Source: Escherichia coli O157 typing phage 7. From it: a DNA stretch of 64,000 bases. Position 1 is the stretch's first letter. Each line of letters begins with the position of its first letter. The notes under the pieces were generated by a model. That model saw only the letters and a list, made by a program, of their open reading frames with translations. It was not told where the DNA came from and made no database searches. Location: the sequence record KP869105. One strand, 5' to 3'. Position numbers and translations under genes: made by a program. Below, piece by piece: positions 23,296 to 54,817 of the stretch.

Positions 23296-23666
23296 TTAAA
23301 TTTAATGGCTTGAAGGAGACTAATAATTCTCAAACGGCTTCTTTCATCTTTAACTGTAAAAGAAAGAGGGTCGCCAGATTTCATAGTGATAGTGCATTCA
23401 AAATCAAAATCTTCAGGAACTTCTTCGAAGAAGTCAAATTCTTCATCATAAATTAGAACTTCACTCCGCAGACTGTGAAGAATTTTTCCAGCATTTCTGC
23501 TAGTTGCTGTACTAATCATTGTAACATTATGACCTTTCATATCTTCAACGATAAATTCGCTTGTAGATATTACGGCATTAATAGAACCATTCCTATTACT
23601 AGCAGAAAGTAGATATTTCTTTTCTTCACCTTCGCGAACACGATATTTCTTACCGATTTTAAACAT
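23292..23666 (-). CDS. Hypothetical protein
   Basis: ORF track 23292..23672 (GTG) trimmed to ATG 23666. Confidence 0.55.
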   Translation of the reverse strand: MFKIGKKYRVREGEEKKYLLSASNRNGSINAVISTSEFIVEDMKGHNVTMISTATSRNAGKILHSLRSEVLIYDEEFDFFEEVPEDFDFECTITMKSGDPLSFTVKDERSRLRIISLLQAIKFK

Positions 23667-23668
23667 AA

Positions 23669-23845
23669 TCACCCTTTAAGTAAATCGTAAAAACCGCCAT
23701 TCACATGCTTAGGAGCAGAAGGCCGACGAGTAGACAAACGATGACATTTAGGGCAAACATCATTTTCTCGTTCAGAAATCTTTTTAATTTTTTCATATTC
23801 ATGCCCGCAATCTTCGGATTGGCATTTATAATCATACATTGGCAT
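23669..23845 (-). CDS. Small zinc-ribbon protein (FmdB-like, 58 aa)
   Basis: Manually translated MPMYDYKCQSEDCGHEYEKIKKISERENDVCPKCHRLSTRRPSAPKHVNGGFYDLLKG; CxxxxC...CxxC; below ORF-track cutoff. Confidence 0.5.
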   Translation of the reverse strand: MPMYDYKCQSEDCGHEYEKIKKISERENDVCPKCHRLSTRRPSAPKHVNGGFYDLLKG

Positions 23846-23847
23846 AA

Positions 23848-24291
23848 TTATTCCTTAAAGTGTGCTTTCAACATCTGATACAAAGACCATGCCTGTTCAT
23901 TATTTTCAATAGTAACTTTCATGACCGGGAATTCTGTGAAATCTTCTATTTGTTCTTGCTCTTTCTCTTCCTGCTCTTGCTCTTCAGCTGCCTGGTATGG
24001 ATTTTCCACTTCATCAAAGAACACGGCTTCACTCGTTGAAAGCCAGATAAAATCTTCATCCAAAATATCTTTACCAGAAGATAACGCCAATTTTCCACTA
24101 GATGTCACAAGTTTAGTAGGACGACCAAGATAGTCAATATCTGTAACTCTAAAAGGTTCCATACCAAGACGTCGTGCATAAATTCCGTTTTCAGTATGGT
24201 CCTTGATAAAATCTTCTTGAGCTTGTTTATTTTTAAATTGATACCATTTATTAACTTCAAATTTAATAGCCATTAATAAGTTTCCTTCCAA
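23848..24291 (-). CDS. Hypothetical acidic protein
   Basis: 147-aa ORF with [11 protein letters not shown] tract; true start may be internal. Confidence 0.55.
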
Positions 24292-24545
24292 TAAGTTGTA
24301 CCATCTTCAGTAATTTCGCGAAACACACCATAAATTGGTTGTTTATCACCAACTTTTTCGTACACATAAACCGAAGTCAAGTGAGTAAACTTATTAGTAT
24401 GTTCCTTTTGAACTACTACAAGATTTGGATCAAATAATACATCTTCAAATTCGTCATTAGTGCAATTCTGAACAATTTTATGTTTCATTACAATTTCCTC
24501 ATTAATTGAACAGTGGAGCGATGCGTTTAAGAAGAGTAGCAGCAC
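24273..24545 (-). CDS. Hypothetical protein
   Basis: 90-aa ORF in track. Confidence 0.5.
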
Positions 24546-24783
24546 CTTTAGCGAATTTTACATCATGAAAAACAGTTTCTTCTTCCGTTACAACACGAGC
24601 TTTAATGTTTTCACAATCCCAATTTTTGCGAACAATCTTCAAAAGCTGCAGTAAATCTTTACATTCAGCAATATCGATAACACATCCACGAGAATCTTCC
24701 ATTATCGCACGATAACCGTAAGCCATACCATAATCGTTAAAAGATTGCTCGATGATAATTAAGTTTTCCATTTTATTCTCCAA
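24502..24783 (-). CDS. Hypothetical protein
   Basis: 93-aa ORF; early-promoter-like element directly upstream (24791-24830). Confidence 0.55.
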   Translation of the reverse strand: MENKMENLIIIEQSFNDYGMAYGYRAIMEDSRGCVIDIAECKDLLQLLKIVRKNWDCENIKARVVTEEETVFHDVKFAKGAATLLKRIAPLFN

Positions 24784-24870
24784 GTTGTTTTCTGTATCAG
24801 TAGTTGATATTGATATAGTACCATAATCAACTACTGATGTATATAGTTTTATGAAAAAAAAATTTAAACT

Positions 24871-25362
24871 TTATGCATAGCGAGCTTTGCTGTAGTGTTT
24901 AATCCAACTTTCAGGAATGACTTTGTATGTTCCTAAAAATACCGCGTTGTATAACTTAACGCCATCTTCTACCCATTGATCAGTAATGTATGCACACATA
25001 GCGCGAGTACGGTTAACAACACCTTCCTCACCTTCAGTAAATTCAAACTCATAAGGAGCAACGAACTTGATAGCTTGACCGAGTTTCCACTTAAAGTCTA
25101 CACCTACATGCGAAGTATCAATCGTTTCAATTCCTTTAGCGGGAACAGCTTTCAAAAACGCAGGCTCAAGAAATTTCCATCGAACATAACCAAACTGAGG
25201 TTTAGACATTCCATCTTTAGGAATGATACGCACTTTTACTTCAGAATCTTCATCTTTAACACCATGTTTAAGCTGAATGCTTACGACTTCAACCAATTTT
25301 CCTGCTGCCTTAGAACGGGATTTATCAGATACACGAGCAATTTCACCGATATTAATATTCAT
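24871..25362 (-). CDS. Hypothetical protein sharing a C-terminal domain with adjacent ORF 25436-25936 (possible MotB-family)
   Basis: 163-aa ORF; C-terminal ITDQWVEDGVKLYNAVFLGTYKVIPESW aligns with VTDQWIEDGVELLNVVHAGEYSVVPRSA of neighbour. Confidence 0.6.
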   Translation of the reverse strand: MNINIGEIARVSDKSRSKAAGKLVEVVSIQLKHGVKDEDSEVKVRIIPKDGMSKPQFGYVRWKFLEPAFLKAVPAKGIETIDTSHVGVDFKWKLGQAIKFVAPYEFEFTEGEEGVVNRTRAMCAYITDQWVEDGVKLYNAVFLGTYKVIPESWIKHYSKARYA

Positions 25363-25405
25363 AATTATCTCTCACTTGTTAAAAAGATTTTATACTCCGC
25401 AGGAC

Positions 25406-25435
25406 CATTATACTCTGGTCCCAAGAGTTTGTAAA
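25406..25435 (-). promoter_or_regulatory. T4-type early promoter
   Basis: Minus strand GTTTAC-N18-TATAAT upstream of ORF 24871-25362. Confidence 0.6.
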
Positions 25436-25936
25436 CTAGCTTACACGAACATTAATCACTGCGCTGCGAGGAACTACAGAGTACTCTCCAGCATGAACTA
25501 CGTTCAGAAGTTCAACACCATCTTCAATCCACTGATCAGTTACCCAACCGCCAATCGGATTCGCGAATGGACGACGAATATAAACTGCCTTACACAACAA
25601 ATCAGTCGGGTCTTCAATTTTTTCAACTGGTGTTACATACATAGAAACTAAATCCATATCAATATGGGATTTTTCTTGTTCTTCTTTTTCAATTTCTGTC
25701 AATAAATTGAAATCTTCTTCATAGATGATGAATGATGATACCCTTCCATAATAGTTTCTAATTTCCATGTACACTGTACCAATGAGAATTCCGCTATTAA
25801 CACTAATAACAGTAAAAGGATATCCGCCAGTTGTACCAAGAAGTTCCCAAAACTTGCTATCAGTCGTATTCGACATTGTCTGGAAATCAATTTCAGATGG
25901 TTTTTTCATTTGATACGTAGTATTAATTTTAATCAT
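25436..25936 (-). CDS. Hypothetical protein, paralog of ORF 24871-25362 (shared C-terminal domain)
   Basis: 166-aa ORF; see C-terminal alignment. Confidence 0.6.
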   Translation of the reverse strand: MIKINTTYQMKKPSEIDFQTMSNTTDSKFWELLGTTGGYPFTVISVNSGILIGTVYMEIRNYYGRVSSFIIYEEDFNLLTEIEKEEQEKSHIDMDLVSMYVTPVEKIEDPTDLLCKAVYIRRPFANPIGGWVTDQWIEDGVELLNVVHAGEYSVVPRSAVINVRVS

Positions 25937-34271: not shown

Positions 34272-34790
34272 TTAATAACCTCGGTCCTGACGAGCAAAGT
34301 TCTCGGCATTTTTCAGATAATAAAGTTTAAAGATTTCTTCTGCTGTAAGACCAAGACCTTGGAACATGTTCAGAACGAAATGGAGAATATCAATCATTTC
34401 AAACTTAATTTCCAGTTGGTCTTGTGGAGACAAATCAGTAATCAGAGTTTCACGACGTTCACCATGCTGCGACTTCCAAGGTTTCCATACAGCAGATGCG
34501 TCTTTTTCACCATTACTCATACCACCAAGAGAAGTCAGAAGTTCACGGAATTCATCATCAATATAATCTTTCTGATTACGCAGCCAATCAACAACTTCAC
34601 CTGCAGTAGCCAAATCATCAGGATGACGGTTATATTCAGGTTTATCTTTAGCTAAACGAACCTGTAAAGATTTCTGCATATCAAGCATAACTTGCAGCGG
34701 GTCTTTTTCATCACCGAGAATATCCCAATATTCATTTTGAGCTTTATCAGCGCCTTCAATCAGTTGTGAACATTCGTTAAAGTAAGCCAT
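34272..34790 (-). CDS. 56: dCTPase/dCDPase gp56
   Basis: ORF track 203 aa trimmed to ATG 34790 (MAYFNECSQ...) with AAAGGAAAAATA RBS giving about 172 aa (T4 gp56 171 aa). Confidence 0.8.
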   Translation of the reverse strand: MAYFNECSQLIEGADKAQNEYWDILGDEKDPLQVMLDMQKSLQVRLAKDKPEYNRHPDDLATAGEVVDWLRNQKDYIDDEFRELLTSLGGMSNGEKDASAVWKPWKSQHGERRETLITDLSPQDQLEIKFEMIDILHFVLNMFQGLGLTAEEIFKLYYLKNAENFARQDRGY

Positions 34791-34861
34791 TATTTTTCCT
34801 TTCAATTCATGGGTTAGTAGATTAATTATACAATAAATATATAAAGCAATAAGGAGGACAT

Positions 34862-35062
34862 ATGGTACAAAAATTAATGGCACTTGTTAATGCCATCAAA
34901 GGTAATAAGAAACGTATAGCTTTTACTATTTCTGCTATGGTAGGAATTTTACTCTGGAACTTTATTTTATCACCAATTGCAATTGCACATGGTGTTAATA
35001 TTCCAGTAGTTACTCTTGATACATTTGTAGATTTAGCATTTGCTTTAGTTGGGTTAATTTAA
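34862..35062 (+). CDS. Small membrane protein on plus strand between genes 56 and 61
   Basis: 66-aa ORF with strong AAGGAGGA RBS 5 nt upstream, two hydrophobic segments; late-promoter-like AATAAATA at 34832-34839; stop overlaps gene 61 stop convergently. Confidence 0.55.
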   Translation: MVQKLMALVNAIKGNKKRIAFTISAMVGILLWNFILSPIAIAHGVNIPVVTLDTFVDLAFALVGLI

Positions 35063-39538: not shown

Positions 39539-39901
39539 TTAAAAGAATTTAAACTTTTTCTTTGACCTTTTATTAAATGCATCTTGTAGTTGCATTGTAA
39601 TACATTTTTCTACATGAGGAGCTAACTCAGCTTTTCTTTCTTGGTCAAGAACAGCAAAGTCCATTACGACTTTTCCATCAACCCAATCTAATTTTGTCAC
39701 ATACACAATGTGTGTAGAACCATCTTCTAGTTTAATGACAATCTCCTGGATAACATTTTCCATGGCAGATTTAATTATCTTAAGAGATTCATTAAAAAGA
39801 CGTTCTTTTCTTTCTTCTTCCCCCTCCGAAGAGGGGGATTCATCGATAATTTCTAGATCTAAATCTAAATCATCTTTATTCATTAAATTCTTCCATATCA
39901 C
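39539..39901 (-). CDS. 40: Head vertex assembly chaperone gp40
   Basis: 120-aa ORF between 41 and uvsX as in T4. Confidence 0.75.
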   Translation of the reverse strand: MIWKNLMNKDDLDLDLEIIDESPSSEGEEERKERLFNESLKIIKSAMENVIQEIVIKLEDGSTHIVYVTKLDWVDGKVVMDFAVLDQERKAELAPHVEKCITMQLQDAFNKRSKKKFKFF

Positions 39902-41057
39902 TTAACTGCTCGAGGTCAGTTTCTAAATCAGCAGCTGATTTACTTTTACTTTCTGGAGATTTAAATTTTTCAACCTTTGAGTTAATCAATTCATCAACTT
40001 CAGCTTCAACAATTTCATTACTATCAATAGCACCTAACTGATAAGCACGCTTAATAGCATCTCGGAATGGTTGATGCTTAAATAAAGGACCCCAGAATGT
40101 GGTGCAGTTAGTATCTTTTGCACGCCAAGATTTTTCTTCGCGAATCATCTCACCGGTTTCTTCATCAAGAAATTCACGAGCATACCAACCATTTTTAGGT
40201 TTTACCACGAATCCTAATTCTAGAGCCATATCTAACAATCCAGAATAAGGATCGATACCGCCGTCAAATTTAACATCAATAAAGAATTTACTTTTTTCTT
40301 TAACGGTACGAGATTTTTCTACATTTAGAACAAATTGATACCCTTGAAGATCAGAACCATCTTTAATCTGACGTTTACCGATAATGAATACGGTATCAGC
40401 CGAATACATTACGCCTGTACCACCTGTCATCACGGTTTTACTAAACATTTCAATTGTTTCAATTGTATGGTTAACCGCAACGCATGGAATATTTTTAATG
40501 CTAAAGTAAGGAGTAACAATACGAAATAATGACTTCAGTGATTTAGCACGAGTCATATCTGCCACAGATTTTTCATTCAAGGCATCTTCCGTTTCTTTCT
40601 TAGAAGCCATATTACCGATTGAATCGATGAATACAATGACTTTTTCACCGCGCTCAATAGCTTCAAGCTGATTCACCATATCAATTTTCAGCTGTTCAAC
40701 TGACTGAATCGGCGTATGAATTATTCGTTCCGGGTCAACTCCCATGGATCGCAAATAAGCTGGAGTAATACCAAATTCGCTATCATAGAATAGACAAACC
40801 GCGTCAGGATATTTGTTCAAATATGCCGCAACCATAGTCAAAGACATATTTGATTTAAAGTGTTTAGAAGGCCCTGCGAAAATAGTTAAACCAGACTGCA
40901 TGCCGCCATCAATCGCACCAGAAATAGCAATATTAAGCATTGGAATTTTTGTACGAATTACATCCTTTTCATTAAAGAATTTAGATGTAGTCAGTTCAGC
41001 AGTCATTTTAGAAGTGGAAGCTTTAATCAAACGGGATTTTAAATCTGCAATAGACAT
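39876..41057 (-). CDS. uvsX: UvsX recombinase (RecA-like)
   Basis: 393-aa ORF matching remembered T4 UvsX (MS.DLKSRLIKASTSK...FIDVKFDGGIDPYSGLLDMALELGFV...). Confidence 0.95.
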   Translation of the reverse strand: MSIADLKSRLIKASTSKMTAELTTSKFFNEKDVIRTKIPMLNIAISGAIDGGMQSGLTIFAGPSKHFKSNMSLTMVAAYLNKYPDAVCLFYDSEFGITPAYLRSMGVDPERIIHTPIQSVEQLKIDMVNQLEAIERGEKVIVFIDSIGNMASKKETEDALNEKSVADMTRAKSLKSLFRIVTPYFSIKNIPCVAVNHTIETIEMFSKTVMTGGTGVMYSADTVFIIGKRQIKDGSDLQGYQFVLNVEKSRTVKEKSKFFIDVKFDGGIDPYSGLLDMALELGFVVKPKNGWYAREFLDEETGEMIREEKSWRAKDTNCTTFWGPLFKHQPFRDAIKRAYQLGAIDSNEIVEAEVDELINSKVEKFKSPESKSKSAADLETDLEQLSDMEEFNE

Positions 41058-41134
41058 TCATTTTTTCCATAGGCATCATTATATTTTCCTCACTGGTTAA
41101 AGATAGAGTAATTATAACACAATAAATTTAGGCA

Positions 41135-41983
41135 TTAATCAACTGCTATCGGATGAATAGCATTAAACTTATGAAATGCTTCTGATTTTTCTTTACGCGA
41201 AACGCACATGCGAAGAACCTTTAATGGCTCGTTTTCTTCACCCAACGATTTTCGTTTTTCAATATTAGAAGTTTTCCAACGAGCTTGCTCTGGAAACTCT
41301 CTATTGATTTGCTCAAGCGCTCTATTATGTTTAGAATTACTACGAATTGAACTGCACCCGCCAGGAGCTTGTGCTTTTCCAGATACAACCAGATATTTGA
41401 ACAAGGCCAAATGCGGATAACCTTGATTAATTAAATTGAGAAATGCATACATATCTTCGCACAAATCAATTTTTCCATACCCAATTTGTTCTGTCGTAAG
41501 TTTTCCGAGGTCATACCATGTATTCGTGAATCCATATGAATTTTCACGATAATTACCCCAAGATGAAGTAATTTTAAAAATAGGTAGACGAGCATGGCCA
41601 TGATAATACCCGCAATCCATGGCATCTTCAACGTATTGAATCAATTCATAGAACTGTTCACGGGTTAATTGATTGACTTTATCTACACAACGACGGTCAT
41701 CTCTTTTTCGCATTGAACTCATACGAATAGTAGTATCATCGTCAATCATCCAGATTCGTTGACCTGCATACATATCAGTAATTGCTTTACGAGTACCGGC
41801 AATTCCATTTACGTCATCAGGAATAGTTATAATTTTAGCTCTAGACCCATAGGCATCATAATAAGCTTTTTCTTCATGTTCACGCACTACAATATGGGGT
41901 TCATAATCAGTCGGAAACATATCAAGGGCAGAAACTGCCCCGACACGCTGATAACTTGGAATTACGAATTGAATCATTTCCAC
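41135..41983 (-). CDS. GT-A fold (DxD) glycosyltransferase at the beta-gt locus; candidate beta-glucosyl-HMC-alpha-glucosyltransferase of T2/T6 type
   Basis: 282-aa ORF between uvsX and gene 42 where T4 has 351-aa beta-gt; contains IWMIDDDTTI DxD motif. Confidence 0.65.
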   Translation of the reverse strand: MEMIQFVIPSYQRVGAVSALDMFPTDYEPHIVVREHEEKAYYDAYGSRAKIITIPDDVNGIAGTRKAITDMYAGQRIWMIDDDTTIRMSSMRKRDDRRCVDKVNQLTREQFYELIQYVEDAMDCGYYHGHARLPIFKITSSWGNYRENSYGFTNTWYDLGKLTTEQIGYGKIDLCEDMYAFLNLINQGYPHLALFKYLVVSGKAQAPGGCSSIRSNSKHNRALEQINREFPEQARWKTSNIEKRKSLGEENEPLKVLRMCVSRKEKSEAFHKFNAIHPIAVD

Positions 41984-42714
41984 TCACCTTTATAGTCTTT
42001 TTTCACAATATGAGTTTCTCCAGTATTCCACCAATGATCAACCAAGTAAAAATGACGAGAATATACATGAAGACTTCCGACATTCCATATAATAGAACCT
42101 GCTTTATACTGACGAGTTGAATCGCCTGCATTCAAATCAGATACTAATTTATCTAATACGTATTTTTGCCATGCATAATCATTACGGAATCCGAAGACCA
42201 CGTCATTTGAGCGCATGCTTACTACTGCATTGACTTTCTTATCACGAATCAGGTACTGTACTGTATTAGTACACATGAAATCTGACATACCATCTTTATT
42301 GTAATCAAATTGCATGGATGGACGAGTATAAATCATGATACCACGTCGAGAATCAGGATTTTGACCAAGTTCAGCTAAACACATATCATACTGGGCATAG
42401 TTATCTTCTGACCAAATAGCCCAACCATAATTCGAGTTAATTTCGCCTTTAGAAGATGCTACCTGCTGCCAAATCTTTGGTGTTTCACCTGGAATATCTT
42501 TAACAAACAAACTCTTAGATTTATACCATTCAAGTTCGCGCTGAATGTATTCATCATTAAGAGCGCCAAAAATAAACGGTTCATCTGCTACAAATGATGC
42601 GCCAATAATTTCAATAGTTTTAACACCGGTTTTATCAACTACGAAATCTTTTTCTTTTAATGCAAGCCCCAAATGAAGACGGATTTCTTCAACTGTCATA
42701 GAGTCACTAATCAT
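41974..42714 (-). CDS. 42: dCMP hydroxymethylase gp42
   Basis: 246-aa ORF, identical length to T4 gp42; thymidylate-synthase-like motifs. Confidence 0.95.
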   Translation of the reverse strand: MISDSMTVEEIRLHLGLALKEKDFVVDKTGVKTIEIIGASFVADEPFIFGALNDEYIQRELEWYKSKSLFVKDIPGETPKIWQQVASSKGEINSNYGWAIWSEDNYAQYDMCLAELGQNPDSRRGIMIYTRPSMQFDYNKDGMSDFMCTNTVQYLIRDKKVNAVVSMRSNDVVFGFRNDYAWQKYVLDKLVSDLNAGDSTRQYKAGSIIWNVGSLHVYSRHFYLVDHWWNTGETHIVKKDYKGEWK

Positions 42715-53575: not shown

Positions 53576-53616
53576 TATATCAAACTCCGTATAAAGCTAA
53601 AGGGCCGAAGCCCTTT
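53574..53616 (-). promoter_or_regulatory. Hairpin terminator plus MotA-box-like AGCTTTA and TATAAT (module also seen upstream of gene 39)
   Basis: Minus strand AAAGGGCTTCGGCCCTTTAGCTTTATACGGAGTTTGATATAAT. Confidence 0.45.
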
Positions 53617-54817
53617 ATTTTGTAATAATGTCAAACTGTTCTTTAAAGCAGAAGCTTGAATCTTGATGCTGATACAAAAATTCATATGCTTTTTCTCGCT
53701 CACGGTCATAAAGAGCTCGGTCAGATGACAGTTCTTTAATACGTTCAAACGTTGATTCCATATCATTTTCATCAAACCAAACGATACCGCTATCATGCGA
53801 AATTAGCGGAGTATTATCAACACGGAATTTTAAATTTTCGCCAGTAGATTTCCAAAATACCGGAATTGTTCCACATGCACCAAGCTCGAGATGAGTATAT
53901 TCTAAAGAACGCTGTAGATATTTTTTATCCAACTTACTCAGCTGATAACCAAATCCGGATTTACTCATGCGTTCAAGCATTTCGCTATTTACATAACGGT
54001 CAAGAATTTGCGTTGGCAAATTAGGAGCAATTTTAATTTGGTCTACTTGATGAAGACGATAATACTCGTATGGAATTCCTTTTTCTTTAATAGGAATGAA
54101 CGCTGGAGAACGTTCCAGACCTTCCATAATAGTACTTAGTCCTGCAGGTTTAAGATGTTTTTCGTGAAAATCAAACATCTGATAAAAACCTTTCCATGTA
54201 GTCGTACGACCAATCCAACGGTTGATATTCATGTTAATTTCAGAAACATCTTTCCAGTAGGTTGATCGAACCTTCGCAATATCCATAGGAGGCTGAAAGT
54301 TGTATACGGTCGGTGCTTCTTCAATATCATCAAACAGAGAAACTGTTTCTGGATACCATTCTTTCATCAGAACTTTATTAAAATCGCCATTATCAGAATG
54401 ACTAAAAATAACATCAGCTCGACGAACAGTTTCTTCTAATCCCAAATTTCGGCGCAAAGAAAGAGAAGAATGGTCATGTTGATAAACTACAACACGAACC
54501 GAAGGTTTAATGTTATCAATAATTTTTTTATAGTTATTAATGGTGTCTTCTTCTACTGAAGTAGCAGGAACTGAATTGATAATTAGAATATCACAATCAT
54601 TTACCAGCTTAAGTGTTTTATCGTATTCTTTTGCCAATAAAACTGGAATTGAAAATGACTTATAATCATGCGCGCAATTACGAGTAAATGATTTATCTTT
54701 AGCATAAACCAAAGTTACTTCATGACCATTTTTAATAAACCAATCACGCTGCTCAAGAGAAAATTTAGTTACACCGCAACCTTCAAGACCTCGAGCCATA
54801 AAAATACATACTTTCAT
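53615..54817 (-). CDS. agt: DNA alpha-glucosyltransferase (alpha-gt)
   Basis: 400-aa ORF, identical length to T4 AGT; N-terminus M.ICIFMARGLEGCGVTKFSLEQRDWFIKNGHEVTLVYAKDKSF. Confidence 0.9.
   Translation of the reverse strand: MKVCIFMARGLEGCGVTKFSLEQRDWFIKNGHEVTLVYAKDKSFTRNCAHDYKSFSIPVLLAKEYDKTLKLVNDCDILIINSVPATSVEEDTINNYKKIIDNIKPSVRVVVYQHDHSSLSLRRNLGLEETVRRADVIFSHSDNGDFNKVLMKEWYPETVSLFDDIEEAPTVYNFQPPMDIAKVRSTYWKDVSEINMNINRWIGRTTTWKGFYQMFDFHEKHLKPAGLSTIMEGLERSPAFIPIKEKGIPYEYYRLHQVDQIKIAPNLPTQILDRYVNSEMLERMSKSGFGYQLSKLDKKYLQRSLEYTHLELGACGTIPVFWKSTGENLKFRVDNTPLISHDSGIVWFDENDMESTFERIKELSSDRALYDREREKAYEFLYQHQDSSFCFKEQFDIITK

Follow-up and report, generated by a model that had tools for sequence, protein, structure and literature searches.

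The interval between uvsX and gene 42

In T4, the interval between uvsX and gene 42 holds segA and a 351-aa beta-glucosyltransferase (b-gt), according to the T4 annotation. Escherichia coli O157 typing phage 7 (KP869105) has a different reading frame at this position, which raises the questions of what its product does and which sugars the phage DNA would carry. A stretch of 64,000 nucleotides, referred to here as the window and used for all coordinates not assigned to another genome, was analysed. A T-even phage evades some host defences and not others depending on the pattern of sugars on its 5-hydroxymethylcytosine (hmC), and an earlier note on this DNA had predicted a T2/T6-like alpha-glucosyl plus gentiobiosyl pattern from a GT-A glycosyltransferase at the T4 beta-gt locus. 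We find that the gene is very probably the T2/T6-type beta-glucosyl-HMC-alpha-glucosyltransferase (ba-gt; synonyms g-gt and TAGT), an enzyme of the gentiobiosyl-hmC pathway. The features of the locus are as follows.

39876–41057, minus strand: uvsX recombinase, flanking the cassette on its downstream side (Pfam T4_UVSX_C and RecA; annotation)
41046–41991, no strand assigned: cassette without T4 nucleotide homology, in place of T4 23556–25496 (segA and b-gt) (blastn; T4 annotation)
41135–41977, minus strand: ba-gt/TAGT coding sequence, probably 280 aa, beta-glucosyl-HMC-alpha-glucosyltransferase, YP_007004785.1 (ORF, RefSeq, PF20691, T2/T6 identity, GT-A model)
41974–42714, minus strand: gene 42, thymidylate-synthase-like dCMP hydroxymethylase, which makes hm-dCMP, directly upstream of ba-gt in the same direction (Pfam Thymidylat_synt; annotation)

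The open reading frames and their Pfam matches place ba-gt between uvsX and gene 42, and blastn against T4 agrees with the earlier placement at the beta-gt locus. Homology to T4 ends at 41045, a few codons inside uvsX, and resumes at 41992, 18 nt short of the end of gene 42. By this alignment a 946-bp cassette replaces the 1941-bp segA plus b-gt cassette of T4 exactly at the gene borders; the position of TAGT has been described as syntenic with that of T4 beta-GT (PMC13390438). No remnant of b-gt or segA is present anywhere within the 64 kb, and the ba-gt protein has no detectable sequence similarity to T4 b-gt, the homology that the earlier note had reckoned against its own reading. T4 b-gt (GT-B, CAZy GT63, Pfam PF09198) and ba-gt thus have a chromosomal slot in common and, by analogy with the characterised relatives of ba-gt, would also share a UDP-glucose donor and the broad role of decorating hmC DNA. 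They differ in predicted fold, with ba-gt modelled as GT-A, and presumably in acceptor, which is bare hmC for T4 b-gt and by analogy alpha-glucosyl-hmC for ba-gt; the T4 cassette additionally carries the segA homing endonuclease.

Reading frame and start codon

The frame at 41135–41983 on the minus strand is open without interruption and encodes 282 aa if GTG at 41983 is the start. The reading frame and its IWMIDDDTTI motif stand as the earlier note described them, but the length of 282 aa does not, as ATG at 41977 is the likelier start from the sequence context, a 6-nt shift giving 280 aa. The coding strand at the start of ba-gt reads AAAGGTGAGTGGAAATGATT, and the junction with gene 42 is arranged as follows.

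41974–41990, minus strand: translational coupling junction, GGTGA followed by ATGA, in which the ba-gt start and the gene 42 stop overlap (sequence)

Three features favour the ATG over the GTG, which was discarded as a start: the distance from the Shine-Dalgarno sequence, the overlap in ATGA and the annotation of orthologues. The GGTGA Shine-Dalgarno sequence lies 6 nt 5' of the ATG and directly abuts the GTG, the ATG shares ATGA with the TGA stop of gene 42, and ba-gt is annotated as 843 nt both in RefSeq (wV7) and in the T2 genome. No homopolymer runs of six or more nucleotides were found in ba-gt.

Family and conservation

The gene is 100% identical to that of Escherichia phage wV7 (HM997020 / NC_019505, Tequatrovirus), a 30.8-kb stretch of whose record recurs letter for letter in the window, and RefSeq names it 'beta-glucosyl-HMC-alpha-glucosyltransferase' (YP_007004785.1). 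It is the same gene as T2 and T6 ba-gt (UniProt Q06717 and Q06718; PF20691). Over its full length the protein is 98.9% identical to that of T2 (AP018813 22282-23124; 280 aa) and 98.2% identical to that of T6 (AP018814 22134-22973; 279 aa), bearing out the relationship that the earlier note had anticipated, and in all three genomes ba-gt lies between gene 42 and uvsX and has an alpha-gt partner. The gene is already known, being annotated in the wV7 record and tabulated by Thomas et al. 2018 (PMC6024577, Table 1), who list wV7 as having an alpha-gt (YP_007004802.1) 91% identical to that of T4, no b-gt, and a ba-gt 99% identical to that of T2.

The sole Pfam match is to PF20691 TAGT (TET-associated glycosyltransferase), with 38.9 bits (gathering cut-off 27.5 bits) and an E-value of 1.2e-9 over profile positions 2-205 of 205. 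No other Pfam profile matches the protein at E<=1, Glycos_transf_2 (PF00535) included, and no NCBIfam model matches it. The earlier note's expectation of a profile match to glycosyltransferase family 2 is thus correct as to a glycosyltransferase family, although that family is TAGT; by sequence profile the protein is outside CAZy GT2 and Glycos_transf_2, and its kinship to GT2 is structural only.

At a nucleotide identity of at least 90%, 474 phage records match the gene, and tblastn extends the matches to 688 records, including T4-like phages of Klebsiella, Enterobacter, Citrobacter and Serratia at 48-66% identity; among the matches listed, the gene adjoins gene 42 in nearly all cases. Two rounds of homologue searching recovered 52 relatives, almost all with PF20691. 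In an alignment of 50 family members R11, R63 and D79-D80-D81 are invariant (50/50), with R212 present in 48 and D175 in 44. The window protein has the complete family-invariant set (the IPSYxR loop with R11, R63, DDD at 79-81, D175, and GGCSxxR with R212) and the Tequatrovirus context, lying directly downstream of gene 42 and upstream of uvsX and having a primary hmC glucosyltransferase encoded at another place in the genome.

The Pfam TAGT domain ends at residue 209, and residues ~210-280 (41135–41350, minus strand) extend beyond it. This lysine/arginine-rich C-terminal part of ~70 residues is modelled with lower confidence (pLDDT 73-90), includes the conserved GGCSxxR, FP and E250 / R256 positions, and may be a DNA- or acceptor-binding part.

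Predicted fold and DxD motif

A PDB sequence search with ba-gt gave no solved relative, the matches at E>1 being noise. An AlphaFold2 model built with the 50-sequence alignment has a mean pLDDT of 93 and a pTM of 0.91, and shows strands alternating with helices in a single Rossmann-like alpha/beta/alpha domain that can be superimposed on solved GT-A enzymes. In the model, strand 74-78 (RIWMI) runs straight into D79-D80-D81, so that a DxD-type acidic motif stands at the C-terminal end of strand beta-4.

41735–41743, minus strand: codons of D79-D80-D81, DxD-type predicted metal / UDP-sugar motif (sequence; invariance in 50/50; model strand 74-78)

The GT-A assignment of the earlier note holds on this confident model, and the T6 protein, there called TAGT, was likewise described as GT-A and sister to GT2 on the basis of an AlphaFold3 model (2026 NAR paper, PMC13216743). 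Fold and motif together suggest divalent-metal-dependent use of a nucleotide sugar, and D175 is the proposed catalytic base. The nearest structural neighbours of the model are GT2-like inverting enzymes, with which a beta-linked product from UDP-alpha-glucose would fit. GT2-like GT-A enzymes such as TarS/TarP, K4CP, cellulose synthase, SpsA, WrtF and AvpGT have only 7-15% identity to ba-gt, and ba-gt differs from them in its C-terminal ~70 residues and, by analogy, in acting on a sugar on duplex DNA.

The gentiobiosyl-hmC pathway

In addition to gene 42, two partners of the pathway are encoded in the window.

34272–34790, minus strand: gp56 dCTPase/dUTPase of the hmC pathway, which excludes dCTP from phage DNA (annotation; Pfam dUTPase_2)
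53615–54817, minus strand: alpha-glucosyltransferase (alpha-gt), GT-B, 400 aa, predicted to supply the alpha-glucosyl-hmC acceptor for ba-gt (PF11440 2.4e-236; PDB 1XV5 5e-257)

The profile and structure matches agree with the conserved alpha-gt reported at this position in the earlier note. In the proposed scheme, gp42 and gp56 would together place hmC in the DNA, to which the GT-B alpha-gt would add an alpha-linked glucose. The ba-gt protein, holding UDP-glucose via a divalent metal at D79-D81, would then attach a second glucose beta-1,6 to the first in an inverting reaction like that of its structurally nearest GT2-like enzymes, giving gentiobiosyl-hmC. The addition of a beta-1,6 glucose onto alpha-glucosyl-hmC in DNA is inferred because the protein is nearly identical to the characterised enzymes of T2 and T6, and for the same reason the T2/T6-type alpha-glucosyl plus gentiobiosyl pattern is expected. 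DNA of wV7 would accordingly include unmodified hmC, alpha-glucosyl-hmC and gentiobiosyl-hmC, and no beta-glucosyl-hmC.

Published data fit this scheme. T6 without ba-gt loses gentiobiosyl-hmC and has ~75% alpha-glucosyl-hmC (PMC11078745; bioRxiv 10.64898/2026.02.25.707755), and HPLC/MS of ten Tequatroviruses with alpha-gt and TAGT showed alpha-gentiobiosyl-hmC to be present and beta-glucosyl-hmC absent (PMC13390438). The usual combination is TAGT with either alpha-gt or beta-gt, that of alpha-gt and beta-gt seen in T4 being rare (6 of 753 genomes; PMC13216743). Recognising alpha-gt plus TAGT here is routine annotation of the common state in Tequatrovirus.

How much gentiobiosyl-hmC

The gene pair alone leaves a wide range of proportions. 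The difference in gentiobiosylation between T2 and T6 is a 60-year-old observation. Among phages with the same pair the gentiobiosyl fraction is ~5% in T2, ~40% in EL, BGP and Geo, ~67% in NR1, QOTSP and others, and 72% in T6 (PMC6024577, PMC13390438). The closest comparators are the Durham phages vB_Eco_NR1 (LR990704) and QOTSP (OY720014), whose ba-gt is two residues from that of wV7 (D24N and N249D), neither position being conserved in the family; the NR1 alpha-gt has three differences from that of wV7 (99.2% identity). DNA of both phages consists of ~1/3 hmC and ~2/3 gentiobiosyl-hmC by HPLC/MS (PMC13390438). With both transferases nearly identical to those of NR1, wV7 DNA is more likely, by analogy, to be NR1/T6-like than T2-like, with ~1/3 hmC, ~2/3 gentiobiosyl-hmC and little mono-glucosyl; as the fraction varies so widely among phages with the same pair, this prediction rests on one close comparator.

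The other phages differ further. The T2 ba-gt departs from that of wV7 at R11H, N249D and P251S, and its alpha-gt is of the same allele as in wV7 (99.0% identity). In T6, a 3-nt deletion changes DDD to DD, accompanied by Y40N, D55G, R106H and N249D, and the alpha-gt is 91.5% identical to that of wV7. EL has eight differences in ba-gt and an alpha-gt of the T6/T4-type allele (91.5%).

Two determinants of the ratio were considered and set aside. The DDD to DD change is an in-frame deletion at the site corresponding to 41735–41743, found only in T6 and HP3.2 among 466 matching records. The high gentiobiosylation of T6 despite DD means that two aspartates suffice. The deletion as a need for high gentiobiosylation is ruled out by NR1 and QOTSP, which have DDD and ~2/3 gentiobiosyl-hmC. 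The alpha-gt allele (T2-type or T6/T4-type) is unsupported as the ratio setter, NR1 having the T2-type allele together with high gentiobiosylation; at 99.2% identity between the alpha-gt of NR1 and that of T2, the allele fails to explain the low value of T2.

Could wV7 nevertheless resemble T2, its closest relative overall in ba-gt (98.9%), whose alpha-gt allele it also has (99.0%, against 91.5% to T6)? The enzyme would then be present as a minor contributor, the DNA being mostly alpha-monoglucosylated with a few per cent gentiobiosyl-hmC, as would follow the ~5% of T2 (PMC6024577). This is unlikely, since wV7 keeps R11, invariant in 50/50 homologues, and P251, both of which are changed in T2; since the exact 63-nt T2 stretch with the H11 codon is confined, among 268 matching records, to T2 records and SV76; and since NR1, whose alpha-gt is of the T2 type (99.2%) and whose ba-gt is only two residues away, reaches ~2/3 gentiobiosyl-hmC (PMC13390438).

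Codon 11 of ba-gt (41945–41947) specifies His in T2, and Arg in wV7, T6, NR1, QOTSP, EL, RB32, Bas44 and 50/50 homologues. A tentative suggestion, plausible but somewhat short of probable, is that the T2 ba-gt is a laboratory-lineage hypomorph, which would explain 5% in T2 against 72% in T6 and would leave wV7 DNA mainly gentiobiosylated. It is based on R11H at an invariant Arg together with P251S, and on NR1, which with R11, P251 and a T2-type alpha-gt is ~2/3 gentiobiosylated. The T2-specific R11H, as a possible and testable cause of low T2 gentiobiosylation, is the sole mildly new point of this comparison.

Two alpha-gt alleles ~8.5% apart occur in Tequatrovirus, and they assort independently of the ba-gt allele. 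That of wV7 (53615–54817, minus strand) is the T2-type allele, only 91.5% identical to T6 and EL, and includes two homopolymer runs, A7 at nt 289 and A6 at nt 892. In T2 agt, a frameshift contingency locus (simple-sequence repeat) is reported by a preprint of 2025.

Acceptor and donor

Extension of alpha-glucosyl-hmC, as set out above, also has to be weighed against functional substitution for b-gt, in which bare hmC would be glucosylated directly in beta linkage with no extension of alpha-glucosyl-hmC. The location of ba-gt at the T4 b-gt locus would suit such a role, and the family acceptor range is incompletely defined in that some TAGT homologues occur in phages without alpha-gt or beta-gt (PMC13216743). 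It is nonetheless very improbable, as T2, T6 and the Durham Tequatroviruses, with enzymes at least 98% identical, have no beta-glucosyl-hmC and retain 25-33% bare hmC (PMC11078745, PMC13390438, 10.64898/2026.02.25.707755), and the ~75% alpha-glucosyl-hmC still made by T6 without ba-gt implies that ba-gt acts after alpha-gt (PMC11078745; 10.64898/2026.02.25.707755). That this GT-A enzyme takes some other donor or acceptor, such as a sugar other than glucose or a target other than DNA, is hardly credible: the structural neighbours do use many donors and acceptors and donor specificity is not fixed by sequence alone, yet the protein is 98-99% identical to enzymes for which gentiobiose on hmC is the chemically established product, and its gene is linked by translational coupling to gene 42, which belongs to the hmC pathway.

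Sensitivity to host defences

Gentiobiosyl-hmC is resistant to both Brig1, a glycosylase, and BapA, a deglucosylase, whereas GmrSD-family enzymes such as BrxU still cut it (PMC11078745, 10.64898/2026.02.25.707755, PMC13390438, PMC13216743), and T6 without ba-gt is more sensitive to Brig1 and BapA (PMC11078745; 10.64898/2026.02.25.707755). If wV7 DNA is mainly gentiobiosylated, the phage would show low sensitivity to Brig1 and BapA and remain sensitive to GmrSD/BrxU-type enzymes. For wV7, which targets O157, knowledge of its alpha-gt plus ba-gt set helps to predict host range.

Other features of the region

The interval between gp56 and the primase gene 61 in wV7 (34791–35058) has no dam methyltransferase; its sole annotated ORF is 201 nt long and on the opposite strand. 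In EL a gene for a DNA adenine methyltransferase occupies this interval, as it does in T4, and in the Durham collection a Dam-like gene goes with the 1:2:2 modification group (PMC13390438).

A promoter and terminator scan around ba-gt, using a generic sigma-70 pattern, gave nothing exceeding the shuffled background. The 77-nt spacer between ba-gt and uvsX (41058–41134, minus strand) contains TGTGTTATAAT, an extended -10-like element, with TGCCTAAA ~12 nt upstream, and from their sequence the two elements are a possible uvsX promoter of the T4 early or middle type.
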